From contig JALONG010000002.1 of NCBI GenBank assembly GCA_025455065.1, positions 422 to 64,421 of the forward strand: DNA of 64,000 nucleotides, in the 5' to 3' direction. The position numbers and the translations under genes are program-made. Positions 2-60,074 of this stretch are shown here, one piece after another (positions within the stretch are counted from its first letter, which is position 1; each line of letters begins with the position of its first letter). The notes under the pieces were generated by a model that had not been told where the DNA came from, ran no database searches, and worked only from the letters and a program-made list of their open reading frames with translations. The DNA comes from Candidatus Kapaibacterium sp. GTDB lineage: Bacteria > Bacteroidota > Ignavibacteria > Kapaibacteriales > UBA4661.

Positions 2-2971
2 TTATTCACGCGCCTACCCTTTGACAGTGCCGGAGCAAAAGCAAGCCTACATTGCACATTTATTGACACGTTCTCACGATTCTGGGTCGCAAAATCGAAT
101 GGGTTATACCTCTTTACAGGAATTCAGAGAAAAAAAATTGGTCGCCCTGTGGGATTCCCCTGTGATACCATAACAGCTATCGCGCAGGATTCAAGCGGTA
201 TGTTGTGGTTCGCCGGAAAGGGTGTACTTGCTGCATACAACGGCACATTTCGGCAAACTATTTATCTTCCTGATGCTTACCGTGCATCCTTTGTCCATTC
301 CTTGCAATGTAGTGCGGACGGTACGTTATGGCTTGTCGCCAAGGGCAATCTTCTTCGGTGGAATCATCATTCATGGCAAATCGTACAAGAAATCACCGAC
401 CTTGCCGACAAAATATTCTGTTTAGATAAGCAAGGGCGTGTATGGCTTAAAGCGCGTAACGGTCTGTGGTTTGGGCTGCCCGGTCAGTGGCAGTCCTTAA
501 CACGCAGCAAAGGGCTTTTAGAAGAAAATGTTCAAATGCTTGCTGAGGATAATGTCGGTGGGATGTGGATTGCTTATTTCAACAAAGGCTTGCAATACCT
601 GAAAAATAGTGACTTACAGGTTTATACCTTAGAAAACGGTCAATTATCAAATAACTCTGTACGTTCTCTTTTGGTTGGGCGTGAAGGCGAAATCTGGGTG
701 GGTACCAACAACGGTGGACTGAACCGGCTCCGACGAGGCTCACTTCAAATGTTGGATAAGTGGAGCGGTTTGCCGCATGAGAAGGTATTCCCTGTGATGG
801 AAGCACGTGATGGTGCGCTTTGGGTGGGAACTAGCGATGGTGGCGTTTATCGCTTTTTTCAAGGGAAGGTGCAGAATTTGAGTGAAAAGCAGGGCTTAGG
901 AACAAGCATTGCACGGAGTTTGTATGAAGATAAGCAGGGAAATATCTGGGTTGGAACCAGCGGCGGTGGCGCGCACTTGATTAATGTTCGTGCATGGAAG
1001 ATTCAAGAATCCTTACAAAATCGTCATGGGCTGACAAATAATACAGTATTCAGCATCATTCAAGACAAACGTGGTACGCTTTGGTTTGGAACAGAGGACG
1101 GGCTATATTATCGTACTGCTGCTCCGATGCATAAATCAGGTAATCAAGGAATGAAGCTGCATATCAAACAGATAACAACGAAAGAGGGTCTTTCCCACAA
1201 TCGCGTACGGTGTTTAGCACTCGACAGTACAGGAGCAATTTTGGTCGGGACGGCTCACGGATTGAATCGGATAGACACAACGGGCAAGATAACCGCGTAC
1301 ACCGATGCCAATGGATTACCCGGAACAAACCGTATTTTTGCCTTGTACGTTGCGCCGGATTCGACGATTTGGATAGGAACGTTTAATTCGGGGTTAATTC
1401 GCTTCAAAAATGGCGTATTTACGCATTTTACGCAAGCACAAGGACTCTTTGACGATGTTGTCTATGCGATTGCTGAAGATGAGCAAGGACGATTCTGGAT
1501 GTCGTCGAATCGTGGTATTTACTGCGTTGCAAAGAAGGTGCTGGAAGAATTTTCCACAGGAGGGCTTCCGCGTATCACGTGTAACGTTTTCAATAAATAC
1601 GACGGGATGAATGACAACGAATGTAATAGCGGCTCTACGCCGTCTGTTTGGCGGCTTAGGAATGGTCGCCTTGCTTTCCCAACGCTTGGTGGAGTGGCAT
1701 TTATTCAGCCGACGGCTTTGATAAAAAATACGTTGCCACCACCAGTGCTGATTGAATCGGTTATGAGTGATACAACTCAACTGTTGCCAAGTCAAGAACG
1801 TAGGTTCAATGAGCCTTTGACAATCACTCACACACAAAATCATCTGGAAATCCGCTTCACGGCAACAAGCCTTCTTGTTCCGGAAAAAGTTCGCTGCAAA
1901 TATATGTTGGAAGGGTACGACAAACAGTGGATTCAAGCCGAAGAGCGTCGTGTAGCGTATTACGCTAATCTTCCTTCCGGTGCTTATAGATTTCGTGTGA
2001 TTGCGCGTAATAACGCCGAGATATGGAATGACAAAGGCGCACAACTTGAGTTGAAAATTTTACCGCCATGGTGGTCTTCGTGGTGGGCGTGGAGTGTATA
2101 TATTTCAGTTGGAGTGAGTATCGCTTACGTGCTGTTGCGTTATCGAGACCGCCAACAACGGAAAATACTTTTGACAAAACAGCGTGAGCGTGAAGCGGAA
2201 ATTATTCGTCAAAAAAATGCGGAATTGGAAGAAGCAAATGCTGAACTGCGGAATTTGAATGAGGAGAAAAACGAGTTTTTGGGTATTGCCGCGCATGATT
2301 TGAAAAATCCGCTTGGAGCTATTAATATGTTTGCAGAAATGCTCCTCAACGATGATGAATCCATCACGAATGAAGAGCGCCGAATGTATTTGGAAACAAT
2401 GAAAGCATCGTCGGAGCGCATGATTGCTCTTATTGGTAATTTGTTGGATGTGAACGCTATTGAACGCGGAGGGTTTACCGTTAATACAGTCCATATTCCG
2501 ATTGCTCCCTTTGTACTTTCGTTGGTGGATTTGTACTGCGCGAGTGCAGAAAAAAAATCTCTTTTACTGCACTGTAAAATTGATGTAAATTCCGATACAT
2601 CTGTCCTTGCCGACGAGCAAGCATTGATGCAGGTTTTGGACAATCTCGTCTCCAATGCCGTGAAGTATTCGCCGCAAGGAAAAAACATCTATATTCGTTT
2701 AATACCAGGTATCAACGCTATTCGTGTGGAAATTCAGGACGAAGGTCCGGGCATTTCTTCGGAGGACATGAAAAAACTTTTTGGCAAATTTGCCCGCCTT
2801 TCTGCTCGTCCGACAGGCGGGGAACACAGTACCGGTCTGGGCTTGAGTATTGCCAAAAAAATGGTGGAAGCGATGAATGGGCGTGTATGGTGCGAAAGTG
2901 AGTTGGGCAAGGGTGCGACGTTTATTGTCGAGTTGCCGTGTACTCCGAATACTACTCTCAACAAAGCATGA
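2..2971 (+). CDS. Sensor histidine kinase, type A core: periplasmic beta-propeller (Reg_prop repeats), Y_Y_Y, TM, coiled coil, HisKA, HATPase_c. The 5' end is truncated by the window edge: the frame is open back to nt 2, and the first in-frame GTG is at 149.
   Basis: 940-aa ORF with repeated G..WxGTxxGLxxxD propeller motifs, the Y_Y_Y motif (RFRYMLEGYDKQW), one TM segment, H-box EFLGIAAHDLKNPL and N/G1/G2 boxes (NAVKYS, DEGPGIS, GGEHSTGLGLSI). No stop codon upstream in frame. Confidence 0.85.
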   Translation, partial: LFTRLPFDSAGAKASLHCTFIDTFSRFWVAKSNGLYLFTGIQRKKIGRPVGFPCDTITAIAQDSSGMLWFAGKGVLAAYNGTFRQTIYLPDAYRASFVHSLQCSADGTLWLVAKGNLLRWNHHSWQIVQEITDLADKIFCLDKQGRVWLKARNGLWFGLPGQWQSLTRSKGLLEENVQMLAEDNVGGMWIAYFNKGLQYLKNSDLQVYTLENGQLSNNSVRSLLVGREGEIWVGTNNGGLNRLRRGSLQMLDKWSGLPHEKVFPVMEARDGALWVGTSDGGVYRFFQGKVQNLSEKQGLGTSIARSLYEDKQGNIWVGTSGGGAHLINVRAWKIQESLQNRHGLTNNTVFSIIQDKRGTLWFGTEDGLYYRTAAPMHKSGNQGMKLHIKQITTKEGLSHNRVRCLALDSTGAILVGTAHGLNRIDTTGKITAYTDANGLPGTNRIFALYVAPDSTIWIGTFNSGLIRFKNGVFTHFTQAQGLFDDVVYAIAEDEQGRFWMSSNRGIYCVAKKVLEEFSTGGLPRITCNVFNKYDGMNDNECNSGSTPSVWRLRNGRLAFPTLGGVAFIQPTALIKNTLPPPVLIESVMSDTTQLLPSQERRFNEPLTITHTQNHLEIRFTATSLLVPEKVRCKYMLEGYDKQWIQAEERRVAYYANLPSGAYRFRVIARNNAEIWNDKGAQLELKILPPWWSSWWAWSVYISVGVSIAYVLLRYRDRQQRKILLTKQREREAEIIRQKNAELEEANAELRNLNEEKNEFLGIAAHDLKNPLGAINMFAEMLLNDDESITNEERRMYLETMKASSERMIALIGNLLDVNAIERGGFTVNTVHIPIAPFVLSLVDLYCASAEKKSLLLHCKIDVNSDTSVLADEQALMQVLDNLVSNAVKYSPQGKNIYIRLIPGINAIRVEIQDEGPGISSEDMKKLFGKFARLSARPTGGEHSTGLGLSIAKKMVEAMNGRVWCESELGKGATFIVELPCTPNTTLNKA

Positions 2972-4416: not shown

Positions 4417-4418
4417 CT

Positions 4419-4515: not shown

Positions 4516-7500
4516 GTGATGAAGAGGTTATACCTCATAGATATGGGCTTCAGTTATTGCGCCATGAGACATTCTCTCCTCATCTTGCTTCTCCTTTTTG
4601 TTGCTGTCGCTGTACATTCTGTTGCGGCACAGCATTTGCCAATGTTTATGCCCCCGCAAGAACAACCTGCAACCCGCACTGCATTTGACCTCCATCCCCA
4701 AAAAAGCATTGCGCATTACATCCGCCGCACGTGGCAAATGGAGCAGGGGCTTCCGCAAAATTCCGCCCAAGCGCTTTGTCAGACACGCGACGGTTATTTA
4801 TGGATTGGCACCGAAGAAGGCTTGGTGCGCTTCGACGGAGTGCAGTTTACCGTTTTTGATGTGAATAATACCCCCGCTTTGGGGGCAAATACGATTCAGG
4901 CACTCTGCGAAGACCGCAGTGGAACGCTTTGGATAGGCACAAACGGCGGCGGGGTCTGTGCTTACAAAAACGGCGTGTTTACCTCATTTACGAGCCGTGA
5001 TGGCTTGTCCAACGATTTCGTCAGTTCCATTGTTGAAGACCGCACCGCAAGCGGCAAAACGGTGTTGTGGATTGGTACGTTGGGAGGTGGGCTGAATCGT
5101 ATGGAGATAAGCGGCAACGTGCCTGTTTTTACAGCCTACACAACTGCAAACGGGCTAACGCACAATATCATTTTCAGCCTTATTCAATCCCACACCGGAG
5201 CGCTGTGGATAGGTACAAACGGTGGAGGGGTGAATCGGTATGAACAGGGCGTATTTTCTGCCTTAACCACAGCCAACGGGCTGTCCCGCAATCAAGTCCG
5301 TTCTCTGTGCGAAGATAGGAACGGAGCGCTTTGGATAGGAACATTCGGCGGGGGCTTAAATTGCTATGCCGACGGCAAAATGACTGTCTTTACCACAAAA
5401 AACGGTCTGCGGCACGATATTGTCTGGTCGCTATGCGAAGACCGTAGTGGTGCGCTTTGGATAGGAACATTTGGCGGAGGGCTTAATCGTCTCTACAATG
5501 GCGTAATGAGCGCATATACCGAAAACAACGGACTTTCAAGTAACCTTGTGCGATCCATTTGCCAAGACCGCGAAGGTGCGCTCTGGGTAGGAACAGTGGG
5601 CGGTTTGAACAATTTTGCTGACGGGAAATTTACAACCTACACCACCAAAGACGGCTTGACGCATGATGTGGTGCGGGCTGTGCTTGGAGAGCGCTCAGGA
5701 AGCGGTATATGGGTTGGGACATTTGGCGGTGGTGTTAATGTCTTGACAAATGGTAACGTGCCAAGTGTCAAAAGTATCATTACTACTCGCGCCGGAGGAC
5801 TTCCGACGGACATCATTTATGCACTGTTGGAAGAGCGAAACGTTAGTGGAAAAGCGGGTGCCCTCTGGATAGGTACAAACGGCGGCGGATTATGCCGTGT
5901 ACAAGGCGGCAAAACAACGACGTTTACAACAAAAAACGGTTTGACCAACGATGTGGTTTTTACGCTGTTACAAGACAAAAAGGGCGTTTTGTGGATAGGA
6001 ACGGTCGGCGGTGGGGTAAACCGTTACGAAAACGGTGTATTTACGCATCTGACCACACAAGAAGGGCTTCCGAGCGACAATGTGCGAGCATTGCTGGAAG
6101 ATAGGAATGGTGCTGTTTGGATAGGAACTGTTGGGGGTGGTATTGCACAGTATTTCGAGGGGAAAATCACGGTTTACTCCACTAACGAAGGGCTTTCCAA
6201 CAACACCATCCGCTCATTCCACGAAGATGAAACGGGTGTGTTGTGGGTTGGTACGGTTGGCGGAGGGCTGTGCCGCTTCAAAGACGGCGTGTTTCGGGCA
6301 ATCACCACCAAACATGGGCTGTTTAATGACGTTATTCACTCCATTGTGGATGACGGTTGCGGATATTTCTGGATGTCCTGCAACAAAGGGATATTTCGTG
6401 TCCTGAAGCAAGATTTGAACGCCTTTGCCGACGGCACAAAAAAAAGTGTTACAAGCGATGTGTTCGGCACATTAGACGGAATGTTTAATGCCGAATGTAA
6501 TAGCGGCAGTCCCGCAGGAATACGCGACGCACGCGGGAATCTTTGGTTTGCAACGATGACGGGTGTTGTTACGGTGAACCCTCGCAGTAACGGGCTTGGC
6601 GGGGGAATGGTACAGCCGACGGTCATCATTGAAGCGGTGCAAGCAGACAGCCTTCGGAGAGACGTTTCTGCGCCGCTCACGGTGTCTGCGAATGCTGAGA
6701 ACATCGAATTTCATTATACCGCCACAAGTCTGACTGCGCCTGAGCGCACGCGCTTTCGCTATATGCTCGAAGGCTTCGACAAAGAATGGGTTGATGCAGG
6801 GAAACGGCGTGTTGCCTATTACACGCACTTGCCGAAAGGGCGTATGTACCGCTTTTGTGTACAGGCGAGTAATGGTCAAGGGCGCTGGGGAAGCGGTATG
6901 GCATCAGTGGAACTGACCTTGGAAGCAGCATTTTGGGAAACATGGTGGTTTTATGCGCTCTGTGGGATTTCGCTGGGGGGATTGATTATTCTTGCCGTGC
7001 GTATGCGGATTGGGCAGTTTCAGCGTCGTGCGAAGCGCTTGGAATCTCTTGTTTATGAGCGTACGACGGAGCTACGCCAAAGCAACGAAGAAATTCAACA
7101 TCATCTGGAAGTGCTGGACAAACAATCGCAGGAAATTGAGAGTGCAAACACCGTTCTCCGCGAGAAAAACCTTCAACTTGAGGCGTTGCACCAAGAAAAA
7201 GACGAGTTTTTGGGTATTGCCGCACATGATTTGCGGAATCCTTTGGCGAGCATCAAAATTGCGGCTGAACTCATTCGTAAAGCCCGTTCTGTGCCGTCTG
7301 GAGAAGGAATTGTTACTGAGCAGTTACACAAAATTGAGATTCTGGCAGAGCGTATGACGGGTATCGTTTCTAATTTCTTGGATTTGAACGCTCTAGAATC
7401 CGGTGCAATGCAGGTCGGTCGTCAGGAAGTAGCTCTGCGTCCGCTTGTGCAGGAAATCATTGAGGAATATCGTACCAAAGCAGCAATCAAACATATCACA

Positions 7501-7950
7501 GTTATTGCCGATTTCCCGGAAGCCGCTCCACTACTTGTGTTGGGGGATAAACAACTTATCGAAGAAGTTTTGGAAAATCTGCTGTCCAACGCCGTCAAAT
7601 TTTCGCCGCACGGGAAACGTGTCGTTGTCAGGATATGGGATAGCGGTAATGGGAAAAGGGCGGAGAACGTTGTAGAATCTTCATCTCCTGTTCCTTATCC
7701 TTCATCCGTGCTTCGTATCGAAATTCAGGACGAAGGTGCGGGAATTTCTGCCGAAGATATGCCGCTGTTGTTCAAAAAATTCACCAAACTCGCCACACGT
7801 CCGACAGGCGGCGAACACAGTACCGGTCTGGGACTCAGCATTGTCAAAAAGATGGTGGAAGCAATGAACGGGCGCGTTTGGTGCGAATCGGAATTAGGGA
7901 AAGGCGCGACATTTATTGTGGAATTGCCGCACGGGAGTGATATTTTGTGA
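4516..7950 (+). CDS. Sensor histidine kinase, type A core: beta-propeller, Y_Y_Y, TM, HisKA, HATPase_c. Alternative start at 4564 (MRHSLLILLLLF.., signal peptide).
   Basis: 1144-aa ORF with about 14 Reg_prop repeats, RFRYMLEGFDKEW, EFLGIAAHDLRNPL and GGEHSTGLGLSIVKKMVEAMNGRVWCESELGKGATFIVELP. A 20-aa insertion precedes the G1 box. Confidence 0.9.
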   Translation: MMKRLYLIDMGFSYCAMRHSLLILLLLFVAVAVHSVAAQHLPMFMPPQEQPATRTAFDLHPQKSIAHYIRRTWQMEQGLPQNSAQALCQTRDGYLWIGTEEGLVRFDGVQFTVFDVNNTPALGANTIQALCEDRSGTLWIGTNGGGVCAYKNGVFTSFTSRDGLSNDFVSSIVEDRTASGKTVLWIGTLGGGLNRMEISGNVPVFTAYTTANGLTHNIIFSLIQSHTGALWIGTNGGGVNRYEQGVFSALTTANGLSRNQVRSLCEDRNGALWIGTFGGGLNCYADGKMTVFTTKNGLRHDIVWSLCEDRSGALWIGTFGGGLNRLYNGVMSAYTENNGLSSNLVRSICQDREGALWVGTVGGLNNFADGKFTTYTTKDGLTHDVVRAVLGERSGSGIWVGTFGGGVNVLTNGNVPSVKSIITTRAGGLPTDIIYALLEERNVSGKAGALWIGTNGGGLCRVQGGKTTTFTTKNGLTNDVVFTLLQDKKGVLWIGTVGGGVNRYENGVFTHLTTQEGLPSDNVRALLEDRNGAVWIGTVGGGIAQYFEGKITVYSTNEGLSNNTIRSFHEDETGVLWVGTVGGGLCRFKDGVFRAITTKHGLFNDVIHSIVDDGCGYFWMSCNKGIFRVLKQDLNAFADGTKKSVTSDVFGTLDGMFNAECNSGSPAGIRDARGNLWFATMTGVVTVNPRSNGLGGGMVQPTVIIEAVQADSLRRDVSAPLTVSANAENIEFHYTATSLTAPERTRFRYMLEGFDKEWVDAGKRRVAYYTHLPKGRMYRFCVQASNGQGRWGSGMASVELTLEAAFWETWWFYALCGISLGGLIILAVRMRIGQFQRRAKRLESLVYERTTELRQSNEEIQHHLEVLDKQSQEIESANTVLREKNLQLEALHQEKDEFLGIAAHDLRNPLASIKIAAELIRKARSVPSGEGIVTEQLHKIEILAERMTGIVSNFLDLNALESGAMQVGRQEVALRPLVQEIIEEYRTKAAIKHITVIADFPEAAPLLVLGDKQLIEEVLENLLSNAVKFSPHGKRVVVRIWDSGNGKRAENVVESSSPVPYPSSVLRIEIQDEGAGISAEDMPLLFKKFTKLATRPTGGEHSTGLGLSIVKKMVEAMNGRVWCESELGKGATFIVELPHGSDIL

Positions 7951-10393: not shown

Positions 10394-12085
10394 GTGAAGG
10401 ACTTCCACACATACTTTTTCCGCATACCCTACATATTATTTATCCGCGAAATGAAATATCTTTTACCGTCACACGCAGTTCATCTTCCATACACTGAGAT
10501 AGAGCGCCTACGCAGACTCTATATGCTTGCTTTGGGCGTTATTGCACTGTTGGCAATTATGGGACAAATTGCCGTACAAATTGTCTTGCGCAACGACGAG
10601 ACCAATGCCAGAATTGTCAATATCGCAGGCAGACAACGGATGTTGAGCCAAAAATTGTGTAAACTTGCCGCGCAGATGAGTTTTATGGAGCAAACGCCTA
10701 CCTCGGCTGCGAAAGAGGATTTTCTCGCTTCGTTGTTGCTGTGGCGGCAATCTCACGCCGCTTTGCAGTATGGTGATGTTGCGCTGAAAATTTCCGAGGG
10801 AAAAATCAGCGATAGTGTGAAAGCGATGTTTGTCCGCCTTGCACCGACCTTTCTCAGTATGGATGCGCATTGTCAAAAAATACTCTCCCTTGCTTCCGAT
10901 ACGGCACAACGTCCGCTCATGCAGCATGAAGCCACGCTTCTCTTTCGCTATTCCAACGAATTTTTGCCACAGATGAACGCGATTGTGTTTCGGTATGACG
11001 AAGAATTTCGGGCATCTGTGAGGCGTTTGGAGATTCTCGAAGGTTTGCTTTTTGGTATAACACTGCTGGTATTGTTTTTGGAGGCAGCGCTTGTCTTTCG
11101 TCCCGCTGTGAAGCATTTACGCGCTTCGGTGGAGGCGATTGAAGCAACGAATAAGGAATTACGCCATAGCAACGACATTCTCGTTCGCCAGCAAGCCGTC
11201 TTGGAAGACCAAGCCGTCGAACTTGAGGCAATCAACGTGAAATCGCAGGAACAGTATCTTGAGTTGGAGCGCTATAAAACTACGTTGGAGCAGCAAAATC
11301 GTGAATTGGAGCAGCACCGAAGCGCTTTGCAAGAGCAGATGTTTGAGACGGAAAGGATGTACAACGAAGTACGTTTGGCTCGCCGCGCTCAATCGGAATT
11401 TCTGGCGAATCTTTCCCACGAAGTGCGTACGCCCTTGGCTGCGGTGATTGGTTTTACGGAAATTATTCTTGCGGATTTTATCACCGAAGAGGGGAAAGTG
11501 TTTGGTAATCGGGTGTTGCAAAGCGCAAATATGCTGCTTTTGCTGATGAATGATTTAATTGATTTTGCGCAAATTGAAGCGGGGCGTTTTGAAATTCATG
11601 GTGAATTGCAACCGATTCGTCCTGTCATTGAGGAATTGTCTGCTTTGATAGGTGCTGACGCGAGGGTAAAAGGGCTTCAGATGAATGTGGAAATTGCGCC
11701 GGAAGTACCGAAATTGCTGATATTTGACGCTGCTCGTGTGCGCCAAATTTGCTTTAATCTGCTCAGTAATGCTGTCAAGTTTACAGAAAAAGGTCGGGTT
11801 GATTTCCGCATATCGTTTAATGCTGCGACAGGAATGATGCGGTTTGAAGTCGAAGATACCGGCATTGGAATTCCCAATGAAGACCTTGACCGCGTGTTTG
11901 AGCCGTTTATTCAACAAGATGGCTCTCAAACGCGCAAATATGGTGGTGTTGGTGTCGGATTGGCGTTGGTACAGCGCATTGTGCGGCTGAAAGGCGGTAC
12001 TGTTACCCTTACCAGCGAACTTGGCAAAAGAACGCTCGTTGTAGTAGAATTGCCCCAAGAAACACCAAAAGAGAGCGAAGAATAA
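10394..12085 (+). CDS. Sensor histidine kinase, type B core, with a PilJ/NarX-type periplasmic sensor domain (motif [12 protein letters not shown]). Alternative start at 10451.
   Basis: [11 protein letters not shown] motif characteristic of the PilJ/NarX N-terminal sensor family, TM segments, coiled coil, H-box [40 protein letters not shown]. Confidence 0.8.
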
Positions 12086-12088
12086 CCA

Positions 12089-14922: not shown

Positions 14923-14949
14923 TCGGAATCTTTTACCACCAAACAATTC

Positions 14950-21624: not shown

Positions 21625-21749
21625 TCTTGGGAATTTGAGTATAGAAGAAAACAGAGCAATGCGAATATAGGAAAAAACTTGCACAATACAAGGAATCATG
21701 CCATATTGAGGCGTTGCCGAAATGTTTCTGTTACTCTGATTTTTTTACC

Positions 21750-24113: not shown

Positions 24114-24114
24114 G

Positions 24115-40078: not shown

Positions 40079-40079
40079 T

Positions 40080-41951: not shown

Positions 41952-42010
41952 GGCATTATCATTGTTCCCCAATTTTTTACCAACGAATCTCAAACTTTTT
42001 TCAAAAAACT

Positions 42011-50109: not shown

Positions 50110-50488
50110 TGGTTGTGAAGAAAAAATGTTGAACAAGTATCTATTTTTTTCTCACTACGCACAAGAGGTAAATTTTGTTTCAAAAAATACGAAAACCACC
50201 ATTTTCCCTCCGCTCTATATATAGCTCTGAAACAAGTATTAACGAGGCTTCTTCAGCAGATGTAAAAAATACTCCCATAATTAGTTTCAGCAAAATAATG
50301 AGCAAAAATGCTTTCGGTCGATTTTAATGTACGACTTTGCGAGAGAATTTACAGTATTGCGTCCTAAGCGCATGGATATTATCGTGGAAAGCAGAAAAAC
50401 ACTCGCTCCTAAGCAAAAAAGTTGTAGATTGTTGCTCTATTCCCGTCGTAAATCTCTACTTGTTTTACGCTTATTTTTCCTACGAAAA

Positions 50489-53400
50489 ATGACGCTTGCT
50501 AGTCGTGTAGGTGCTGTCGGTATGCTGGTCTTGAGCCTTCTGGTCTTTGGGACAGAAAGCCTTCATGCACAATTTTTACCGCGTGATTCGCTCTTGAAAG
50601 AATTGGCTGTACGCCGCGCCGCAAGTGCTGTTCGGGATTCGGATTATGTGCGCCTGTTATTCCTCGTTGCGCGGAGTTATCGCCCCAACACCGTACAAAT
50701 GCGCCCTTTTGTGGATGAAGCGCGGCAATTAGTTGAGATCTTGCACAGTCCACGCCTGCGGGCATTATTGCACCTTAATATCGGGAATATCTTACGCTTA
50801 GAGCGCCGTTTCACAGAAGCCCGCGATACGCTGAACCTTGCTTTTCAGGGTTTTTCCGAGCAGCGCGATTCTTCAAATATGTCCTCGACGGCGGGGCTGA
50901 TTGCGGTGCTGTATCAGCAGCGTGATATGTTCTCTATGGCGCTTCAATACTATATGCAGGAGATGGAAATTGCGGATAAATGCGGTGATGATAAGAACAG
51001 TTTTTTAGCACGAGTCAATCTCAGTGAAATTTCGATTGCGATGCAACAGCCGGAAAAGGCTCTGTACTTTGTTCGGCAGGCAAAACCGATTTTGGCGCGT
51101 ATTGGCTCAGATGCTTTCCGTGTGGAATGGGCGAAATCTATGGCTGCTGCGTACAGAATGACGCAAAAGCCTGATTCTGCCTTGCTTGTGGCGCAAGAAG
51201 GCGTGAAAGGCTCATGGAAACTTAATGACACGCTTTTGGTGGTGAATTTGTTAGCCCAGGAAGTTCGTTCGTTACGGGCAATGCAACGGTTTGATGAAGC
51301 ATTGGTACGTTTGGATTCCCTTGTCAGTCTTGATGTGGGGCTGAGTGCCGAAGGAGTTTTGCGCCCTACGATGTGTGCTTTGGCTGCTGAGGTGATGAGT
51401 GCTGCCGCGTTAGACTCTGTTTTTCTGTCCAAAACGTCGGCAGTCCGAAAAACTCATCTGTTGGAACAGGCGTTATCCTTTGCCAAGCGGGGGGTATCGC
51501 ATCCCAAAGCAAGCAAAAAAGATATGCTTGATTTGTATGTGGTCTTAGCAAAAGTGTACAATGCGCAAGGTCGGACTAATGAAGCATTTCTAGCCCAAAG
51601 CAGCCTTCTTACATTACGCGATTCGGTCTTTACGGCAAGCCTGCACGCGAGTATTGCCGATATGCAGGAACGCTACGCGCTTGCGCAAAAAGAAGCCGAA
51701 ATTGCTCTGCTGCAAGCGCAGGAGCGCCGCGCAACGATGCTGAATCTGCTATTGACAACGCTCACGCTTTGCGGTCTGTTTGTTGCTGGTGTTTCCTATC
51801 ATCGGTATCGTTCCCAAGAGCGCTCGGAACGGGCTTTACAGGAGGCAAATGAACGTTTGCAGGGGTTATACAAAGAAGCTCTTGCCTACAAAACGCGCAT
51901 TGAAGACCAAAATATGGTCTTAATGGCGCATGAGCGGAAATTACTTGAATCGTTACAGCACAAACAGTTTTTGTCCATTGTTGCCGGTAGTACGTCGCAA
52001 ATGGTCATTATTACTGATGCCGAAGGGCGTGTGCAATTTGTCAATGAGCAGTTTGAGCAGCGCACCGGGTACACTGCTTCGGAAATGATTGGGATAAAAC
52101 CCGGAAAAGTGTTGCAGGGCAAAAACACCAATCCTGAAACGACACGGGAAATCGCACAAGCGCTCCGAGAACGCCGTGCTTTTGAAGGTGAAATCGTGAA
52201 TTACACTAAAGAAGGACGTGAGTATTGGGTGCATCTTTCCATTACACCCGTGTTCAATGACAATGGTGAATGTGAGCATTTTTTGGCGATGCAATACGAT
52301 GTTACTGACCAGCTCCGCAAGCAAGCAGAGGAGCGGATTCAGGCGGAGTTAACGCTGCAAAGTATGATGGCTTCGACGCGAGAAATTGTGATGCTGGTCG
52401 GTGCGGATTTTCAGATGATGCAGTTCAATAAAACCGCTTACAAAGCTATGCGTGAGATGATGCCGGAAATTGAACCGGCAATCGGAATGGATATGCGGCG
52501 ATATTCTCCGGTTCCTTTGGAGGAAGTAGAAAAAGATTTTGAAGAGGTAATGAAAGGCAAATCTGTTGCGTTTGATTTGGATATGCCAAATCCCTCAAAC
52601 CCCACAGAAACACTGACTTTTGAAGTGAACTATAATCCCGTGCGCAATTTACAAGGGGAAATTATTGCGGTAAGTTTTGTTGCGCGAAATATCACCAAAC
52701 GCCGACAGGCTCAGGCACAAATTGAGCAAATGAATCTTTGGTTGGAAAAGCGCGTCCAAGAGCGTACAAAAGAGATAGAAATGCGGGCATTGCAACTTTC
52801 GGCAACAAATAACAAACTTGCGACAGCGTATGCCGACTTGGAAATGGCACAGTTGGAATTGTGGTCGAAAAATCAGGAGTTAGAAAATGTGAATGTGCAA
52901 TTACAGGAAGCAAACTACGAAAAAAGCGAGATTTTAGGTATTGTTGCACACGATTTGAAAAGTCCGCTTTCGGGTATTCAAGGGCTTGCTGAAGTCTTGC
53001 GTGCAGGTATTGATACGGAGTATGCCCAACAAGCCGCTATCGAAATTTACAACGCTTCCGAAAGAATGTTTCGCCTTATCACGAATCTTTTGGATGTCAA
53101 TGCGATTGAAACAGGCAAAATGCCGATAAATCTTGGTCCTTTAGATGTGGGGTTCATCATTGAAACGATTGTTGAAAATTACACTTTGAGGGCTTTGGCA
53201 AAAGTAATTACGATTAATGTCGTTCTCCCCACAAGCCGTGTTTACGCGCTCGCAGATGAATTTGCACTGCCGCAGGTCGTGGAAAATTTAGTCAGTAATG
53301 CCGTTAAATATTCGCCGTTTGAAAAACAGGTTTGGGTTCGCGTGAAAGAAACAATCAACACCCAGAAACAAGCAGTGGTGAGGGTGGAAGTGCAAGACCA

Positions 53401-53605
53401 AGGACCCGGTATTTCTTCGGGCGATATGCAGAAACTTTTCAGTAAGTTCTCTCGCCTTTCTGCTCAACCCACAGGAGGTGAACACAGCACCGGTCTGGGG
53501 TTGAACATTGCCAAAAAAATTGTTGAAGCGATGAAAGGCAAGATTTGGTGTGAGTCTGTGCTTGGAGAAGGAGCAACGTTTATCGTTGAACTTCCGAAAG
53601 CCTAG
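50489..53605 (+). CDS. TPR plus tandem PAS sensor histidine kinase, type A core. ORF track start at 50327.
   Basis: Signal/TM, TPR-like repeats, TM segment, two PAS-like segments (VIITDAEGRVQFVNEQFEQRTGY...; second around 52380..52700), EILGIVAHDLKSPL and GGEHSTGLGLNIAKKIVEAMKGKIWCESVLGEGATFIVELP. Confidence 0.85.
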   Translation: MTLASRVGAVGMLVLSLLVFGTESLHAQFLPRDSLLKELAVRRAASAVRDSDYVRLLFLVARSYRPNTVQMRPFVDEARQLVEILHSPRLRALLHLNIGNILRLERRFTEARDTLNLAFQGFSEQRDSSNMSSTAGLIAVLYQQRDMFSMALQYYMQEMEIADKCGDDKNSFLARVNLSEISIAMQQPEKALYFVRQAKPILARIGSDAFRVEWAKSMAAAYRMTQKPDSALLVAQEGVKGSWKLNDTLLVVNLLAQEVRSLRAMQRFDEALVRLDSLVSLDVGLSAEGVLRPTMCALAAEVMSAAALDSVFLSKTSAVRKTHLLEQALSFAKRGVSHPKASKKDMLDLYVVLAKVYNAQGRTNEAFLAQSSLLTLRDSVFTASLHASIADMQERYALAQKEAEIALLQAQERRATMLNLLLTTLTLCGLFVAGVSYHRYRSQERSERALQEANERLQGLYKEALAYKTRIEDQNMVLMAHERKLLESLQHKQFLSIVAGSTSQMVIITDAEGRVQFVNEQFEQRTGYTASEMIGIKPGKVLQGKNTNPETTREIAQALRERRAFEGEIVNYTKEGREYWVHLSITPVFNDNGECEHFLAMQYDVTDQLRKQAEERIQAELTLQSMMASTREIVMLVGADFQMMQFNKTAYKAMREMMPEIEPAIGMDMRRYSPVPLEEVEKDFEEVMKGKSVAFDLDMPNPSNPTETLTFEVNYNPVRNLQGEIIAVSFVARNITKRRQAQAQIEQMNLWLEKRVQERTKEIEMRALQLSATNNKLATAYADLEMAQLELWSKNQELENVNVQLQEANYEKSEILGIVAHDLKSPLSGIQGLAEVLRAGIDTEYAQQAAIEIYNASERMFRLITNLLDVNAIETGKMPINLGPLDVGFIIETIVENYTLRALAKVITINVVLPTSRVYALADEFALPQVVENLVSNAVKYSPFEKQVWVRVKETINTQKQAVVRVEVQDQGPGISSGDMQKLFSKFSRLSAQPTGGEHSTGLGLNIAKKIVEAMKGKIWCESVLGEGATFIVELPKA

Positions 53606-54103: not shown

Positions 54104-54111
54104 TTGTCGTA

Positions 54112-57100
54112 ATGTCCATGTTTGTCATATCTGTCATAACTTTTTTCAGCAGATGTATGCACGTGCTTGTTATCGTCATATCGTTGTTATTGCTCTATGC
54201 GGAACCTGCATCAGGGCAGGGAGCATATTCGCCCCAAATTGCCTTTAAGCATTTGACGATTGATAACGGATTGCCGCAAAATACCGTATTTTCTATTGCG
54301 CAAGACCATCACGGCTTTATGTGGTTTGGTACGCAAGACGGACTTTGTCGGTACGATGGTTATGAAATGAAGGTATTTCGCCATGACCGCAAAAAACCGT
54401 ATTCGTTGCTCAATAATTATGTTTTATCCATGCTGATTGACAGCAAACAACGGCTTTGGGTGGGAACTGCCGGTGGCGGACTGAGCCTTTACAATGAAAA
54501 AAATAATCATTTTACGCCCTTTGTCCATAATCCCCATGTCGCACAAACACTTTCAGACAACAGAATTTATGCACTATGCGAAGACCGGACGGGTAAACTT
54601 TGGGTGGGCACTGAGCGCGGCGGAATAAATCTCTTTAATCCTGAAACGGGCAAGGCGCGAGCCTTTCTGCATAATCCGAGCGATATTCACAGTATTCCTG
54701 CAAATCGTGTCGCGGCGATTGTGAAGGATGCCGCAAAAACTTTGTGGATAGCAACGGTTGGGGGCGGTCTCTGTTATTTCAATCCCACGGATTCTACGTT
54801 TATTCGTGTACGGTTTGAGGCAAATGACGCTATGGCAACGCATGGAATTGTGAAAACGCAAGACCGTGCTGAAAAAGCAGGGAAGCCGCTGTTGGCGATT
54901 GACAACAATAGTGTTTCTGCGCTGTATGCCGACAGCGAAGGGTATTTGTGGGTGGGAACGCACGGAGCAGGGGTTTTGCGAGTTAATGTACGCCATAACA
55001 CGTGGGAGCGCGTTGTATCGAACTTTTCGGGCAAGCAACTACGCCCTGAAAATGACGTTTTTTCTATTGTTGGTGACCAAAATGGACGGATTTGGATTGG
55101 ATTGGAAGGCGGTGGTGTAAGAATTTATGACCGCTTGGGCGGTATTATCCTTTCCTGTGTCCACGACCCGCTCAATGCACCGAGTTTAAGCGATAATGTT
55201 GTCCGAAGAATGTACTGCGATAATGCCGGAACCATGTGGATAGGCACTGCCACAGGTGGGGTGAATAAATACGCCTCCGGAGCGCACCGTTTTTCGGTGT
55301 ATCGGCATGAACCCCTGAATCCGGGAAGTCTCGCGGCAGATGTTGTTCGGGCATTTTGCGAGGATGCAGCAGGAAATATTTGGGTAGGTGCTGTGGACGG
55401 TGGATTAAACAGATTCTTGCGAAAAGAAGGTACTTTCGAGCGTCATCAATACGCACCTTTGCACGATAAAGCCTTGGGAAGCGAGGATGTATGGGCATTA
55501 GCGGCTGCACCCGATGGTGAATTGTGGGTTGGAACACAAAATGGTTTATTTGCGTATCATCCAACAACAAAAACGCGCACGGTTTATCGTCATAGTCCTA
55601 GCGAAGCCGGTTCTATAACAAATAATATCATTCGCGCCCTGCATTTTGACCGCGACGGTGTGTTGTGGGTAGGAACAAATTTGGGTGGATTATGTCGTTT
55701 TGATGCTGCTTCGCGGTCGTTCAAATCATACCGTTTTTTGTTTAATGACAGTTTGACGACAACCGGAGCCGGAACAGTTTCTGACCCGATACGAGATATT
55801 CTCCACGCTTCCGACGGTACGTTGTGGGTTGGAACGGTAAACTTAGGCGTTCTGGCATTTGACAAAGAGCGAGGCGTAATTAAGGCTTCGTACAGGCACA
55901 ATGAGGCTGCTCCGGAAGGGCAGAAAGGTTTGAGCAACAATACCATTCGCTATTTGCACGAAGACAAACGCGGCAATATATGGGCTGGGACGCTGGACGG
56001 ACTAAATTGCATCAGCCCGCAAACAGGAGCAATTCGTGTTTATACCGAAGATGACGGGTTGCCGAATGAGGTTATTTACGGGATTTTGGAGGATAATGGA
56101 GGATTTTTTTGGCTTACCACTAATAAAGGTTTGGTACGCTTTCATCCCGAAAAACGTTCCTTCAAAACCTATACAAAACAGGACGGCTTGCAGAGTAATG
56201 AGTTCAATGGGCGAGCAGTGATGCGGGGTTCGGATGGCTGGTTTTACATGGGCGGTATAGGGGGTTTTAATACCTTCCACCCTGATTCTATTCGTGATAA
56301 TGGGCGTATTCCACCTGTTGTTTTGACTGATATTAAAGTCTTCGGAAGAAGCCTTGAACTTGACACAACAATTACGGAGCGCACAACACTGACATTGCCG
56401 TACACGCACTCGAATTGCACGTTTTCCTTTGTTGCACTGAATTTTGTCGGTGCGGAAAAAAATCAATATCGCTACATTTTAGAAGGCTTCGACAAGGAGT
56501 GGGTTGAAGCCGGAACAAGGCGGGAAGCCATTTACACGAATTTAGAGCCGGGCGATTATACCTTCCGTGTGCAAGGCAGCAACAACGACGGTATTTGGAA
56601 TATGGAAGGGGCTGTATTGACGATAACCATCACGCCGCCTTGGTGGGGAACGTGGTATTTTCGCTTGGGCGCGGTTGCCGGTGTTATTGCATTTGGCGTT
56701 TTTACATATCGTCGTCGGATTTTTGTCTATAGAGAAAATGAGCGTCGTTTGGAAAACCTTGTGCAGATGCGGACGCAGGTGCTGACCGAGACAAACAACC
56801 GCTTGGGTGCGGCGAATGAAGAAATTCAGCGTCAGATGATGATGCAACATGAGCAGTCGCACGAGTTGCAGAAGGCTTATATGCAACTTGACGAAGCAAA
56901 TGATATTTTGATTACGCGAAATCACGAACTGATGCAACTAAACAAAGAGAAAAACGACCTTTTGGCGATTGTTTCGCATGACCTCCGTAATCCGCTTGTT
57001 TCCACGCTTTTGGCTATTAAACTCCTGCAAAAACGGTACCCGAATTTGAGTGATGAAGAAAAGTTTGCATATTTAGCAAAAATCCAGAGTGCGAGTGAGC

Positions 57101-57747
57101 AGATGATTGATTTTATCACGAAATTGCTGGATGTAAACGCGCTGGAAACGGGAAAAATGCCCGTCAGCCTTGTTCCTTGCGATATTCGCGTAGCAACAGA
57201 AGCCATTATGGAAAATTATCACCCCCGCGCTGTTGCAAAAGGCATAACATTTAGCTATGAAGCCGCTTCCGAACCGATTGCTCTGGCTGATGCCGTGCTG
57301 TTGCCACAGGTATTGGATAATTTGCTTTCCAATGCACTCAAGTATTCGCCAAATGACAAAGTGATTGCAGTGCGCATCACCACTCGCAGCGCGAATAATG
57401 TTGAAAATACAAACGATGGAAAAACTGTCCGTTTGGAAGTCCAAGACCAAGGACCGGGCTTAACAGAGGAAGATAAACGACGATTATTTCAAAAATTCGC
57501 TCGACTTTCGGCGCGTCCCACCGGAGGCGAACACAGCACAGGTCTTGGATTAAGCATTGTGAAAAAAATGGTGGAAGCGATGCACGGCAAGGTTTGGTGC
57601 GAGTCTGAAATTGGCGTAGGCTCAACGTTTGTGGTTGAATTACCTGCGTTTCAATCAGCTAATCAGTCTGTCAATCATTTCGGTAATACGTACATCGGTT
57701 ATGCAGCACTCATGAACAGCGAACAGCATAAATACACGCTTCATTAA
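54112..57747 (+). CDS. Sensor histidine kinase, type A core: beta-propeller, Y_Y_Y, TM, HisKA, HATPase_c.
   Basis: 1211 aa with many Reg_prop repeats, YRYILEGFDKEW, DLLAIVSHDLRNPL and GGEHSTGLGLSIVKKMVEAMHGKVWCESEIGVGSTFVVELP. Confidence 0.9.
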   Translation: MSMFVISVITFFSRCMHVLVIVISLLLLYAEPASGQGAYSPQIAFKHLTIDNGLPQNTVFSIAQDHHGFMWFGTQDGLCRYDGYEMKVFRHDRKKPYSLLNNYVLSMLIDSKQRLWVGTAGGGLSLYNEKNNHFTPFVHNPHVAQTLSDNRIYALCEDRTGKLWVGTERGGINLFNPETGKARAFLHNPSDIHSIPANRVAAIVKDAAKTLWIATVGGGLCYFNPTDSTFIRVRFEANDAMATHGIVKTQDRAEKAGKPLLAIDNNSVSALYADSEGYLWVGTHGAGVLRVNVRHNTWERVVSNFSGKQLRPENDVFSIVGDQNGRIWIGLEGGGVRIYDRLGGIILSCVHDPLNAPSLSDNVVRRMYCDNAGTMWIGTATGGVNKYASGAHRFSVYRHEPLNPGSLAADVVRAFCEDAAGNIWVGAVDGGLNRFLRKEGTFERHQYAPLHDKALGSEDVWALAAAPDGELWVGTQNGLFAYHPTTKTRTVYRHSPSEAGSITNNIIRALHFDRDGVLWVGTNLGGLCRFDAASRSFKSYRFLFNDSLTTTGAGTVSDPIRDILHASDGTLWVGTVNLGVLAFDKERGVIKASYRHNEAAPEGQKGLSNNTIRYLHEDKRGNIWAGTLDGLNCISPQTGAIRVYTEDDGLPNEVIYGILEDNGGFFWLTTNKGLVRFHPEKRSFKTYTKQDGLQSNEFNGRAVMRGSDGWFYMGGIGGFNTFHPDSIRDNGRIPPVVLTDIKVFGRSLELDTTITERTTLTLPYTHSNCTFSFVALNFVGAEKNQYRYILEGFDKEWVEAGTRREAIYTNLEPGDYTFRVQGSNNDGIWNMEGAVLTITITPPWWGTWYFRLGAVAGVIAFGVFTYRRRIFVYRENERRLENLVQMRTQVLTETNNRLGAANEEIQRQMMMQHEQSHELQKAYMQLDEANDILITRNHELMQLNKEKNDLLAIVSHDLRNPLVSTLLAIKLLQKRYPNLSDEEKFAYLAKIQSASEQMIDFITKLLDVNALETGKMPVSLVPCDIRVATEAIMENYHPRAVAKGITFSYEAASEPIALADAVLLPQVLDNLLSNALKYSPNDKVIAVRITTRSANNVENTNDGKTVRLEVQDQGPGLTEEDKRRLFQKFARLSARPTGGEHSTGLGLSIVKKMVEAMHGKVWCESEIGVGSTFVVELPAFQSANQSVNHFGNTYIGYAALMNSEQHKYTLH

Positions 57748-60074
57748 TGATTACGCATCAAAGTACAAACGACGAGTTGTCAATTTTTTCTAGTGTTTTA
57801 GGAGCAGTAATGTCTTGTCAATGGCTTGCAATCAGGGCTTTAAGCATAATTAGCCTAATGATGCTTGGGTTTGGTGTTGGCAATGCGGTATTTGCACAAA
57901 TGCCGCAGAATATAGCTTCAATCAACCTTGCAGGCAATGAAGGGCGTATCAATATCGGGCGAGAATCCTTGCACTATATCGAAGATGCTTCCGGTAAGCG
58001 CAGTATTCAGGAGGTAATCAATGCGGATACTTTTTTATGGAAGAACGTTCCTACCGACAAGCCCAGCTTTGGTTTTACGCGCTCTGCTTATTGGTTTCGC
58101 TTTTGTGTGCAGCAGTCAAACTCGCCGCTTCGGAGTGCAAATATCGGTGTAAATACCGTAGTGGGATTCGGCAATGATTGGCTTCTGGAAATTGATTATC
58201 CGCCATTAGATTACATCACTATATTCCACACAACCCTCTCCAAAAGAGGCTTGGGTAGTGCTTCGCAGGCAGATTCTTTGGTTGTAAGGAAAATAATTGA
58301 AACAGGCGATAGAGTGCCGTTCCAAACAAGGCTTGTGCCGCACCGAAACTACGTTATACCGCTTGTTATCAGCGACACCGCAACTCACGTGTACTATGTG
58401 CGCATTGTGACCGAAAGTTCGCTGCAAGTCCCTATGACGCTTTATCGGAGAGATGCCTTTGAGCGTCATAATACGCGATTTGATATGTTTTATGGAGCGC
58501 TGTTCGGCACGATGCTAACAATGGTCGCTTACAATTTGGTGTTGTTTTTTGCAATGGGCGTACCGTCGTATCTTCTTTTTGTGTTGTATATGTCGGCTTC
58601 GGCGTGGTATTATGCGGCTATTAGCGGGTATGGGTTGTATGTTGTCGGCGAAATGCCGTATTGGGCCAATACGCTAACGTTGGTCGCGCTGTTTGCCGCA
58701 TACACGAGTTTAGCCTTTTTTGCACGATATTTCTTACAAACCTTCCGGCATAGCCCTACGTTAGACAAAGCGCATTTTACGATAGGAATTCTAGGCTGCA
58801 TTGGGCTTGTAGGGGTGTTTGTGTTGCCATACAGCATTATGGTTTTCTTCGGTTCGGCTTTGGTTCTTATTGTCTCAATCTTGTGCTTTACCAGTAGTAT
58901 CGTGATGATACGGCGCGGCAATAAAAGTGCGCAGTATTTCCTCATTGCGTTGGCGGCATTTTTAGTAGGAGGTTTAACGACGTTATTGCGAAATGTCGGG
59001 CTTGTACCGAATAATATTTTTTCGGTGCATAGCGTTGAAATCGGCTCTGCACTTGAAGGAATTTTGTTCTCGTTTGGTTTGGCAGGGCAATACCGTATGC
59101 TGAAAAAGCAAAAAGAACAGGCGCAGGAAAAAGCATTGCAACTCCAAAAAGAAGCAAATGAGCGTTTGGAAGAAAAAGTGCGCGAAAGGACATTAGAACT
59201 GGAAGAAAGCAATGATGAGATTCAGCGCCAATTAAAAATTTTAGACGAGCAGTCGCGTGAAATTGAAATTGCCAACACGACGCTTCAGGAAAAAAATCTG
59301 CAATTAGAAGACCTCAATCGCGAGAAAAACGAGTTTCTGGGCATTGCGGCGCATGATTTGAAAAATCCGCTTTCATCCATTACGATGTCTGCTTCCATTG
59401 TGCTTTCCTACCGTGACAAACTTACGCAGGAAATGCTTGAAGACCGCTTGCAAACTATCTTAAACACCTCAGGGCGAATGATGGAAATTATCAAAAATCT
59501 GCTGGATGTGAATGCGATTGAATCAGGGCAGTTCGCTTTTACGGTGGAACACGTCGAAATGAACGAGATTGCAAGCGGTTTGGTGAATGAATATCAAGAC
59601 CGCGCCGCCGCAAAATCTCTTGAACTTGTTTATGAGCCGCAAGCAGCCTTAACAACCGTCATGGGCGACAAAACGGCGCTCACGGAGGTTTTGGAAAATC
59701 TCATTTCCAATGCAATCAAATACTCACCACCGCACAAACGGATTTTTGTTACGCTGACTAATCGTCAGAACATAGATTCTATGGGTCTTTCAGAGCAACC
59801 TCGCACACAGAGCCTATCACCGATAACCTCTATCCTCATTGCAGTTCGTGACGAAGGTCCCGGGCTTTCGGATGACGATAAGACAAAACTTTTTGGGAAA
59901 TTTGCACGGCTTTCCGCACGACCAACAGGCGGGGAACACAGTACCGGACTGGGACTCAGCATTGTGAAAAAAATGGTGGAGGCAATGCACGGGCGCGTGT
60001 GGTGTGAATCGGAATTGGGCAAAGGTGCGATGTTTTTGGTGGAACTGCCCGTCAGCAATACAAGCTCAAACTAA
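57747..60074 (+). CDS. 7TMR-DISM sensor histidine kinase, type A core. The start overlaps the upstream stop as TAATG.
   Basis: Signal peptide, 7TMR-DISM extracellular domain, 7 TM helices, coiled coil, EFLGIAAHDLKNPL and GGEHSTGLGLSIVKKMVEAMHGRVWCESELGKGAMFLVELP. A 25-aa insertion precedes the G1 box. Confidence 0.85.
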   Translation: MITHQSTNDELSIFSSVLGAVMSCQWLAIRALSIISLMMLGFGVGNAVFAQMPQNIASINLAGNEGRINIGRESLHYIEDASGKRSIQEVINADTFLWKNVPTDKPSFGFTRSAYWFRFCVQQSNSPLRSANIGVNTVVGFGNDWLLEIDYPPLDYITIFHTTLSKRGLGSASQADSLVVRKIIETGDRVPFQTRLVPHRNYVIPLVISDTATHVYYVRIVTESSLQVPMTLYRRDAFERHNTRFDMFYGALFGTMLTMVAYNLVLFFAMGVPSYLLFVLYMSASAWYYAAISGYGLYVVGEMPYWANTLTLVALFAAYTSLAFFARYFLQTFRHSPTLDKAHFTIGILGCIGLVGVFVLPYSIMVFFGSALVLIVSILCFTSSIVMIRRGNKSAQYFLIALAAFLVGGLTTLLRNVGLVPNNIFSVHSVEIGSALEGILFSFGLAGQYRMLKKQKEQAQEKALQLQKEANERLEEKVRERTLELEESNDEIQRQLKILDEQSREIEIANTTLQEKNLQLEDLNREKNEFLGIAAHDLKNPLSSITMSASIVLSYRDKLTQEMLEDRLQTILNTSGRMMEIIKNLLDVNAIESGQFAFTVEHVEMNEIASGLVNEYQDRAAAKSLELVYEPQAALTTVMGDKTALTEVLENLISNAIKYSPPHKRIFVTLTNRQNIDSMGLSEQPRTQSLSPITSILIAVRDEGPGLSDDDKTKLFGKFARLSARPTGGEHSTGLGLSIVKKMVEAMHGRVWCESELGKGAMFLVELPVSNTSSN

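Follow-up and report, generated by a model that had tools for sequence, protein, structure and literature searches.

A dense array of sensor histidine kinases in Candidatus Kapaibacterium: old, diverged paralogues with no response regulator encoded in the window

Organization of the kinase array

The DNA studied here is a 64-kb stretch of a Candidatus Kapaibacterium sp. contig, which was analysed as a whole and is referred to as the window. Its dominant feature is an array of sensor histidine kinases (HKs) at positions 2-60074. Pfam scans of the large open reading frames (ORFs) place HisKA and HATPase_c domains in 15 ORFs of this region, and all 15 match the two profiles used as criteria for a HisKA-type (class I) kinase, PF00512 and PF02518. 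The original prediction, that 15 HKs fill more than half of the window, is borne out by these scans: the kinases, numbered HK01 to HK15, have a combined length of ~37.4 kb, or 58% of the window. Fourteen are encoded on the + strand and only HK09 on the − strand. Three types of kinase core (A, B and C) are found with different N-terminal regions, as follows.

HK01, 2-2971, + strand: type-A core with a beta-propeller (Reg_prop) and Y_Y_Y sensor (Pfam)
HK02, 2968-4416, + strand: type C (TorS/BarA/LuxQ-like), N-terminus with multiple transmembrane (TM) segments and no known sensor domain
HK03, 4543-7950, + strand: type A, beta-propeller/Y_Y_Y sensor (Pfam)
HK04, 8210-10369, + strand: type A, TPR sensor (Pfam)
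HK05, 10523-12085, + strand: type C, PilJ-like N-terminal sensor (Pfam)
HK06, 12089-14449, + strand: type A, weak match to the 7TM domain of 7TMR-DISM (Pfam)
HK07, 14713-17097, + strand: type A, TPR sensor (Pfam)
HK08, 17200-18657, + strand: type C, no known sensor domain (Pfam)
HK09, 24737-26491, − strand: type A, TM and HAMP (Pfam)
HK10, 28428-32024, + strand: type A, beta-propeller/Y_Y_Y sensor (Pfam)
HK11, 32061-34230, + strand: type B, TPR sensor (Pfam)
HK12, 34279-36616, + strand: type B, 7TMR-DISM sensor (Pfam)
HK13, 50327-53605, + strand: type A, TPR and PAS sensor (Pfam)
HK14, 54157-57747, + strand: type A (the most divergent), beta-propeller/Y_Y_Y sensor (Pfam)
HK15, 57747-60074, + strand: type A, 7TMR-DISMED2 and 7TMR-DISM sensor (Pfam)

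The N-terminus of HK01 is cut by the window edge; the whole gene encodes 1124 amino acids (aa) in a contig of JGI metagenome 3300037462, which begins just 45 nucleotides (nt) before HK01. A metagenome scan with the propeller region of HK01 returned only distant propeller proteins, at 20-32% identity. Several of the kinase genes are closely spaced. The HK02 start reaches 4 nt into the HK01 stop region (2968-2971), a 3-nt gap separates the HK05 stop from the HK06 start (12085-12089), HK14 and HK15 overlap by 1 nt at the HK14 stop codon (57747), and a 103-nt gap lies between HK07 and HK08. All three type-C kinases adjoin a type-A kinase (HK01/02, HK05/06 and HK07/08). The sensor tally given earlier for the type-A kinases holds for TPR (three, one with PAS), 7TMR-DISM (two, one of them weak) and HAMP (one), but the beta-propeller/Y_Y_Y class has four members rather than five. 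The label "CHASE8-like" is not supported, as no CHASE8 match was obtained with Pfam at a threshold of E 0.01.

Core subfamilies

Ten kinases (HK01, 03, 04, 06, 07, 09, 10, 13, 14 and 15) form type A and share one core subfamily. Over the dimerization and histidine phosphotransfer (DHp) and catalytic and ATP-binding (CA) domains, their pairwise amino-acid identity is 41-60%. This identity is unevenly distributed, with means of 36% in the DHp, 60% in the N-box region and 76% in the last ~75 residues. The earlier description of an almost identical DHp/CA core is therefore accurate for the catalytic boxes and the C-terminal block, but not for the core as a whole. Similarly, the H-box string that had been quoted for the group is exact in five of the ten type-A kinases, with HK03 as a sixth that differs only by a K to R change. 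The proposed division into three shared cores applies only loosely: the two type-B cores, HK11 and HK12, are 70% identical, and the type-C cores of HK02, HK05 and HK08 share just 34-47%. Comparison with NCBIfam models shows that type-C cores resemble those of the TorS/BarA/LuxQ type and that types A and B resemble the PnpS/WalK/PhoR type. None of the NCBIfam equivalogs was matched at its cutoff, so the kinases cannot be given a specific name.

All ten type-A cores have the His, N, G1, F and G2 residues without variation, and the HDxxN motif, which is linked to phosphatase activity in HisKA kinases, is also kept. The nearest solved structures are those of ordinary HisKA kinases, namely HK853 (3DGE), VicK (4I5S), WalK and PhoR, with profile E values of 1e-33 to 1e-40. 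Type A shares with these class I kinases the same DHp and CA fold and all catalytic boxes. What sets type A apart from them is a C-terminal block conserved within the subfamily (VWCES...ELP), together with a variable insert in a loop of the CA domain. Because the catalytic boxes and HDxxN are intact, ordinary kinase and phosphatase action on a receiver (REC) domain is the default expectation, and the type-A proteins most likely act as ordinary bifunctional kinases/phosphatases.

Age of the type-A paralogues

The original prediction offered ongoing gene conversion as one source of the near identity of the type-A cores, whereby the cores would be kept homogeneous while the sensors diverge. It had also named a nucleotide-level comparison as the check that could refute this idea, and this comparison goes against it: synonymous sites are saturated, as in old paralogues. 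The mean Nei-Gojobori proportion of synonymous differences (pS) is 0.70-0.72 in every part of the type-A core, including the C-terminal block (0.72). Where residues are identical, the codon is also the same at 46% of positions within the C-terminal block and at 49% of those in the rest of the core, with ~36-39% expected from codon usage alone. Because of this, the block can be described as conserved without extra nucleotide similarity.

Relatives of the type-A kinases were found by an alignment scan with one genome per species, and foreign loci, designated by L-numbers (e.g. L013), were those that matched two C-terminal peptide motifs exactly. The same C-terminal motifs are present in at least 562 relatives, whose identity to the query is 49-62%, the same range as among the window paralogues. 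Their hosts are mostly metagenome-assembled genomes (MAGs) of Kapabacteria or "Ignavibacteria", and also Verrucomicrobia, Abditibacteriaceae, Bryobacteraceae and Thioploca/Thiomargarita. The closest relatives and the syntenic loci come from MAGs labelled Candidatus Kapaibacterium, Kapabacteria or "Ignavibacteria bacterium". For pairs with at least 88% amino-acid identity over the 126 nt from the G2 box to the ELP motif, mean nucleotide identity is 0.79 between window kinases, 0.78 between window and foreign kinases and 0.77 between foreign kinases, and identity within the genome is thus equal to that between species.

The nearest neighbours of the cores were determined in two ways. Ranked by bit score, seven of the ten type-A kinases have a foreign kinase as their best core match, and the best window paralogue ranks anywhere from 1st to 41st; as exceptions, HK06 best matches HK09, and HK01 and HK09 have a window paralogue in second place. 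When neighbours were assigned by alignment identity within a set of 147 type-A cores, taken from the window and from other genomes, a window kinase was never closest to a window paralogue, and in most cases the nearest core was that of a foreign kinase of the same sensor class. Full-length orthologues at 50-68% identity are present in syntenic Kapabacteria loci (HK04 in L013, HK10 in L040 and HK14 in L065), and residues of DHp helix α1 that are specific to one paralogue are conserved in the respective orthologues. In the test for concerted evolution, type-A paralogues of one genome do not cluster apart from orthologues.

Concerted evolution of the type-A cores is refuted by pS, codon identity, nearest neighbours and the G2-to-ELP comparison, and as an account of the array gene conversion is very unlikely. 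Three stretches could be cited in its favour: a tract at the 3′ ends of the type-B pair HK11/HK12, a 95-nt insert shared by HK09 and HK10 at 84% identity (both described below), and a segment of 118-130 nt that HK03 and HK09 share at 91-92%. The last of these was rejected as a conversion tract, since over G2-to-ELP HK03 is no closer to HK09 than to kinases of other species (87-88% in each case). Near-identical tracts with low synonymous divergence and sharp breakpoints are absent from type A and are found only at the HK11/HK12 3′ end. For the type-A kinases, the picture is one of duplication long ago, with past shuffling of sensors and with purifying selection, and gene conversion is not ongoing. 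The choice between conversion and selection is settled because both orthologues of other species and synonymous sites were compared.

The HK11/HK12 tract and support for the assembly

The type-B kinases lie in tandem and are mutual best matches, although their sensors differ (TPR in HK11, 7TMR-DISM in HK12). Their last ~190 nt (220 nt with a missing segment restored) are 95-100% identical, in contrast to the remaining core, where nucleotide identity is 55-80%. The two arms of this tract are located as follows.

HK11 arm of the conversion tract, 34031-34217, + strand, sharp breakpoints
HK12 arm of the conversion tract, 36411-36605, + strand, sharp breakpoints

The tract is a recent gene conversion and the one clear case in the island. 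It also coincides with two apparent deletions in the window, which begin at the same point of the repeat: HK11 lacks 40 nt after 34128 and HK12 lacks 32 nt after 36508, and in each the G2 box is lost and the frame is shifted. Identity is 100% over the 97 nt upstream of the gap and ~95% downstream of it; with the missing segment restored, the tract contains at least 129 identical nt.

Independent sequences for comparison were available as two contigs (34.6 kb and 152.7 kb) of the JGI metagenome and as Logan contigs of SRR12684587. In the JGI assembly, which is of the same sample, HK11 and HK12 are both intact, as are the orthologues in other genomes. One of the JGI contigs stops 13 nt inside the stretch that HK11 lacks in the window; the other begins within the tract and includes an intact HK11 3′ end as well as HK12 in full (789 aa, P0001). 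The JGI assembly breaks at this position because the restored identical repeat is at least 129 nt long. The two frameshifts reflect either an error in the assembly of the window or a minority/population variant. Treatment of HK11 and HK12 as fixed pseudogenes was considered and not adopted, both being intact in the JGI assembly. A practical point for annotation is that the two kinase genes that look like pseudogenes lie within a repeat, and that a second assembly of this sample has them intact.

These gaps raise the question of whether the array, or its repetitiveness, is an artefact of collapsed or chimeric paralogues in a metagenome assembly. Both differences between the window and the JGI contigs fall exactly in the repeated HK11/HK12 tract, and the JGI contigs break at this tract and 45 nt upstream of HK01. 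Apart from these two indels, however, the JGI and Logan contigs show 0 mismatches to the window; the paralogues, at 41-60% identity, are too different for collapse, and comparable islands occur in several independent MAGs. Because the independent contigs carry the same sequence, the array is not an assembly chimera, and an artefact of this kind is so improbable as to be negligible.

A palindromic insert in the CA domain

In HK09 (~25019-25127) and HK10 (~31647-31757), an insert of 95-110 nt occupies the CA loop between the N-box strand and the G1 box. The insert is built from the heptamer TTGGTCA and its complement (TGACCAA), is in frame and palindromic, and reads in protein as ...LVIG...TNDQ..LMTNDQ...; its hairpin has a z score of −3.7 in HK09. 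Degenerate copies are present at the same site in HK06 (~14140-14215) and, as a short TNDQ insert, in HK07 (~16800-16850). The 14-mer TGACCAATGACCAA, searched with up to 2 mismatches, occurs 12 times in comparison with 0.48 expected; 11 of the 12 occurrences are in CA loops, and the sole other one is at 26600-26613. Orthologues of HK10 in two other species (L040 and L054) lack the insert, and kinases of other genomes carry related inserts. This distribution suggests that the insert either is an element with a preferred site for in-frame insertion or has been passed between paralogues. The insert resembles the Rickettsia palindromic elements (RPEs), which are in-frame palindromic elements.

Sensor modules on a shared cassette

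The type-A cassette consists of a coiled-coil linker, the DHp and the CA, and the shared part reaches upstream of the H-box (repeat family D7). Among the window cores, that of HK01, a propeller kinase, is closest to those of HK04 (TPR) and HK09 (HAMP). Across the wider set, the nearest core neighbour belongs to the same sensor class for 82 of 135 informative cores, which corresponds to 61% versus 23% by chance; for the other 39%, the sensor class differs. The proposal of modular sensor swapping onto a common kinase cassette is thus confirmed as history. As judged from these core comparisons, sensor and core are for the most part inherited together, with shuffling repeated over the history of the family. 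Domain shuffling is also seen in type B, where HK11 (TPR) and HK12 (7TMR-DISM) have different sensors on one core.

The output partner

To search for a partner regulator, 889 six-frame fragments of the window of at least 40 aa were compared with three profiles: one of 5 REC sequences, one of a Kapabacteria NarL-type regulator family and one of 120 NarL-type sequences. No REC domain or response regulator was found in the six frames of the window (best E 0.14 over the three profiles), and Pfam scans of all large window ORFs detected no Response_reg, Hpt or HTH output domain. A REC domain is also absent from the 8.5 kb past the window end. As a positive control, the 5-sequence REC profile picked up 49 REC-bearing fragments in related loci. 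In agreement with what had been noted from the sequence, the window encodes no REC, hybrid receiver or HTH output, and all 15 HKs are orphans there. A NarL-type regulator of this organism was also sought among the database matches but was not located there, all contexts being from other samples.

Regulators are present in the arrays of relatives. The Kapabacteria MAG Clear-D13 (JACVZY010000104) has 17 HKs on one strand in 53 kb together with a single REC-GerE (NarL-type) regulator, which is located inside the array, directly after a type-A kinase. In two further populations (L162 and L167), the NarL-type regulator follows the last kinase of the type-A array by 27-48 nt, and in L170 a truncated copy follows a TPR kinase. 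The kinases that precede the regulator differ in sensor: 7TMR-DISM in two cases, a 500-aa kinase without a known sensor, and TPR. This regulator family is lineage-specific: its members share 44-97% identity, and generic NarL-type regulators follow at only ~35%. The NarL-type regulator of a more distant relative is beside an NtrC-type regulator, with kinase-like HATPase_c genes nearby, and not at the end of a type-A array. The conserved Kapabacteria NarL-type regulator is the leading candidate for the partner. As the arrays of relatives hold one such conserved regulator, usually at the 3′ end, convergence of the kinases on it is plausible, and a many-to-one wiring may be proposed on genomic context.

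Positions +7, +8 and +10 to +15 after the His, in DHp helix α1, are the most variable of the H-box region among the ten paralogues (1.8-2.9 bits). In the EnvZ and HK853 work of Skerker and Laub, these positions reportedly set partner specificity in the HisKA kinases studied. One interface shared by all kinases is disfavoured because the specificity residues differ among paralogues and are conserved in each.

In one form of many-to-one wiring, the island would serve as the input layer to a multikinase network of very large size, in which most or all type-A kinases would phosphorylate or dephosphorylate one conserved NarL-type regulator encoded at another array. Four related populations each have a type-A array with a single orthologous REC-GerE regulator, at the 3′ end in three of them and inside the array in the fourth, Clear-D13, and conservation of the regulator (70-97%) far exceeds that of the kinases. 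Precedents for such networks exist in GacS/RetS (PMC5992135, PMC8498467) and in the KinA-E/Spo0A phosphorelay (PMC8749435). In contrast, the α1 pattern, with the specificity positions most variable among the paralogues and each variant kept in orthologues, is the expectation for insulated, distinct partnerships. In addition, the distant relative has its regulator outside any array, and none was found in this organism. Considering both sides, this network is possible but less likely than not. Somewhat more doubtful is the fuller version, in which at least 15 HisKA kinases with different sensors and individually conserved DHp surfaces would all act on one lineage-specific NarL-type regulator, with the CA-loop heptamer element adding variation. 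If true, such a many-to-one arrangement would exceed every described multikinase network several-fold in size.

Alternatively, some of the kinases might act on other kinases, through RetS-like heteromers or cross-phosphorylation, and not on a regulator. This would explain both the translationally coupled type-A/type-C pairs, with the spacings given above for HK01/02, HK05/06 and HK07/08, and the missing regulator. 7TMR-DISM sensors, as found in the array, occur in RetS and LadS, and the type-A REC-HisKA-HATPase proteins of relatives could take phosphate from other kinases. However, the catalytic and phosphatase motifs are all canonical, the window contains no REC or Hpt, and adjacency by itself is expected in a tandem array. 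Action on other kinases is therefore unlikely. As for a non-canonical output, which had also been suggested, nothing in the analysis points to one.

In a number of relatives, the type-A core is part of a short REC-HisKA-HATPase protein of 375-440 aa (L027, L030, L031, L038, L047, L048, L050, L051, L056, L060, L061 and L071). These loci are from Verrucomicrobia MAGs and one unclassified MAG (L031). At most of the loci, its gene directly follows that of a large hybrid kinase (1450-2470 aa in complete genes), and the two form a conserved two-gene module.

Origin of the island and comparison with known systems

Most probably, the kinase island goes back to an old tandem duplication, its members are stable, vertically inherited sensor-core genes, and their regulator is encoded outside the window. 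One HisKA/HATPase_c cassette would have been duplicated in tandem and joined over evolutionary time to different sensors (periplasmic beta-propeller/Y_Y_Y, TPR, 7TMR-DISM, HAMP and PAS), with each sensor-plus-core combination becoming a stable, vertically inherited gene. Purifying selection on the catalytic fold keeps the motifs nearly identical, including the C-terminal GGEHSTGLGLSIVKKMVEAMNGRVWCES...ELP block, and these motifs characterise the subfamily in general rather than this genome in particular. The kinases would then pass phosphate to response regulators encoded outside the window. The comparisons establish the anatomy of the array, how old its paralogues are, that they are not homogenised and that no regulator is encoded locally; we infer both the kinase activity and the identity of the partner.

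Several observations weigh against this explanation. The pairs HK09/15, HK03/09 and HK03/15 have raised codon identity at their 3′ ends (z 3.4-5.1), which may reflect old, short conversion. Conversion does occur in the island, as seen in the HK11/HK12 tract, and the HK09/HK10 insert, absent from HK10 orthologues, suggests some exchange between paralogues. The motif-based selection of foreign loci over-represents conserved C-termini and gives an incomplete orthologue set, and the spread of the subfamily across phyla could be due to horizontal transfer instead of age. Finally, the partner regulator was not found in this organism, in the window and the 8.5 kb downstream of it.

Expansion of a kinase family, with orphan kinases and domain shuffling, is a general pattern (Alm, Huang & Arkin 2006, PMC1630713), and the island is an example of this known pattern at unusual density. 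As in the expansions of Alm et al. (2006), many paralogues of one kinase-domain subfamily are present in one genome (10 A, 2 B and 3 C), different N-terminal sensors are found on a shared kinase domain, and most copies are regulator-free, with one or a few in an operon with a regulator, here in the relatives. In contrast to those expansions, in which the duplications are recent, terminal-lineage events, the present ones predate the divergence of the sampled Kapabacteria, and the island paralogues are as far from each other as from the homologues of other phyla. The density also differs, with 15 HKs in 60 kb, mostly in tandem and on one strand.

Multikinase networks are established for P. aeruginosa GacS/RetS (PMC5992135, PMC8498467) and for B. 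subtilis, in which KinA-E feed the Spo0A phosphorelay (PMC8749435). The island resembles these systems in that several inputs may feed one regulator and 7TMR-DISM sensors are found in both, and relatives have one conserved NarL-family regulator per array. Unlike these networks, the window has no Hpt or receiver domains, the putative specificity residues differ between kinases, and the scale would be several times larger than that of the characterised systems. With RetS/LadS-type hybrids, the island shares 7TMR-DISM (HK12, HK15 and, weakly, HK06), but no C-terminal receiver is present here.

The hybrid two-component systems of Bacteroides combine Reg_prop, Y_Y_Y, HisKA, HATPase_c, REC and an AraC HTH. 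The propeller kinases of the island have the same periplasmic beta-propeller/Y_Y_Y sensor fused to a HisKA kinase, in a Bacteroidota-related lineage. In contrast to the Bacteroides proteins, all four end at the CA domain and have no REC or AraC part. A search of the literature on Kapabacteria and histidine kinases returned nothing relevant.

The main value of these results is a clean negative: a near-identical block in ten neighbouring paralogues mimics conversion and stems from purifying selection. In addition, an uncultured Bacteroidota lineage keeps very dense, conserved sensor-kinase arrays with at most one regulator per array. The lineage is therefore well suited to a question that Alm et al. 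(2006) left unsettled, namely whether the orphan kinases of an expansion converge on shared regulators or are each paired with a distant partner.

Neighbouring genes

The genes between the kinase blocks are unrelated to HKs and encode MoeA, a di-haem oxidoreductase, an acyl-CoA ligase and others (Pfam). Between HK12 and a metallophosphoesterase gene, positions 37508-43666 encode DabA (856 aa), a DabB-like proton-pumping subunit and a SulP-family transporter, a putative inorganic-carbon uptake module. In the related locus L054, the HK11 orthologue directly adjoins the metallophosphoesterase. A HAMP-adenylate cyclase (20218-21699, − strand) is divergent from genes for a TonB-dependent receptor and a YfiR/HmsC-like DUF4154 protein (21714-24645, + strand); another relative (L009) has a REC-adenylate cyclase beside a stand-alone REC. 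Directly after HK15 is a stand-alone gene for an Imm33 immunity protein (60122-60478), with no toxin gene seen nearby.

In the flank of the window, one encoded protein bears a Por_Secre_tail domain, which serves as the sorting signal for type IX secretion and is typical of Bacteroidota. Two proteins, one with DUF2887 and one of the PDDEXK_2 nuclease family, flank the large subunit of a molybdenum hydroxylase operon (61654-62556 in the window and 13156-14010 in L160), which includes a 2Fe-2S subunit, RidA and MoCoBD. Finally, two inverted repeats are probably terminators: an intergenic hairpin at 26623-26655, with a perfect 13-bp stem (z = −5.8), and a 40-nt inverted repeat at 20031-20157, between the convergent MoeA and cyclase genes.

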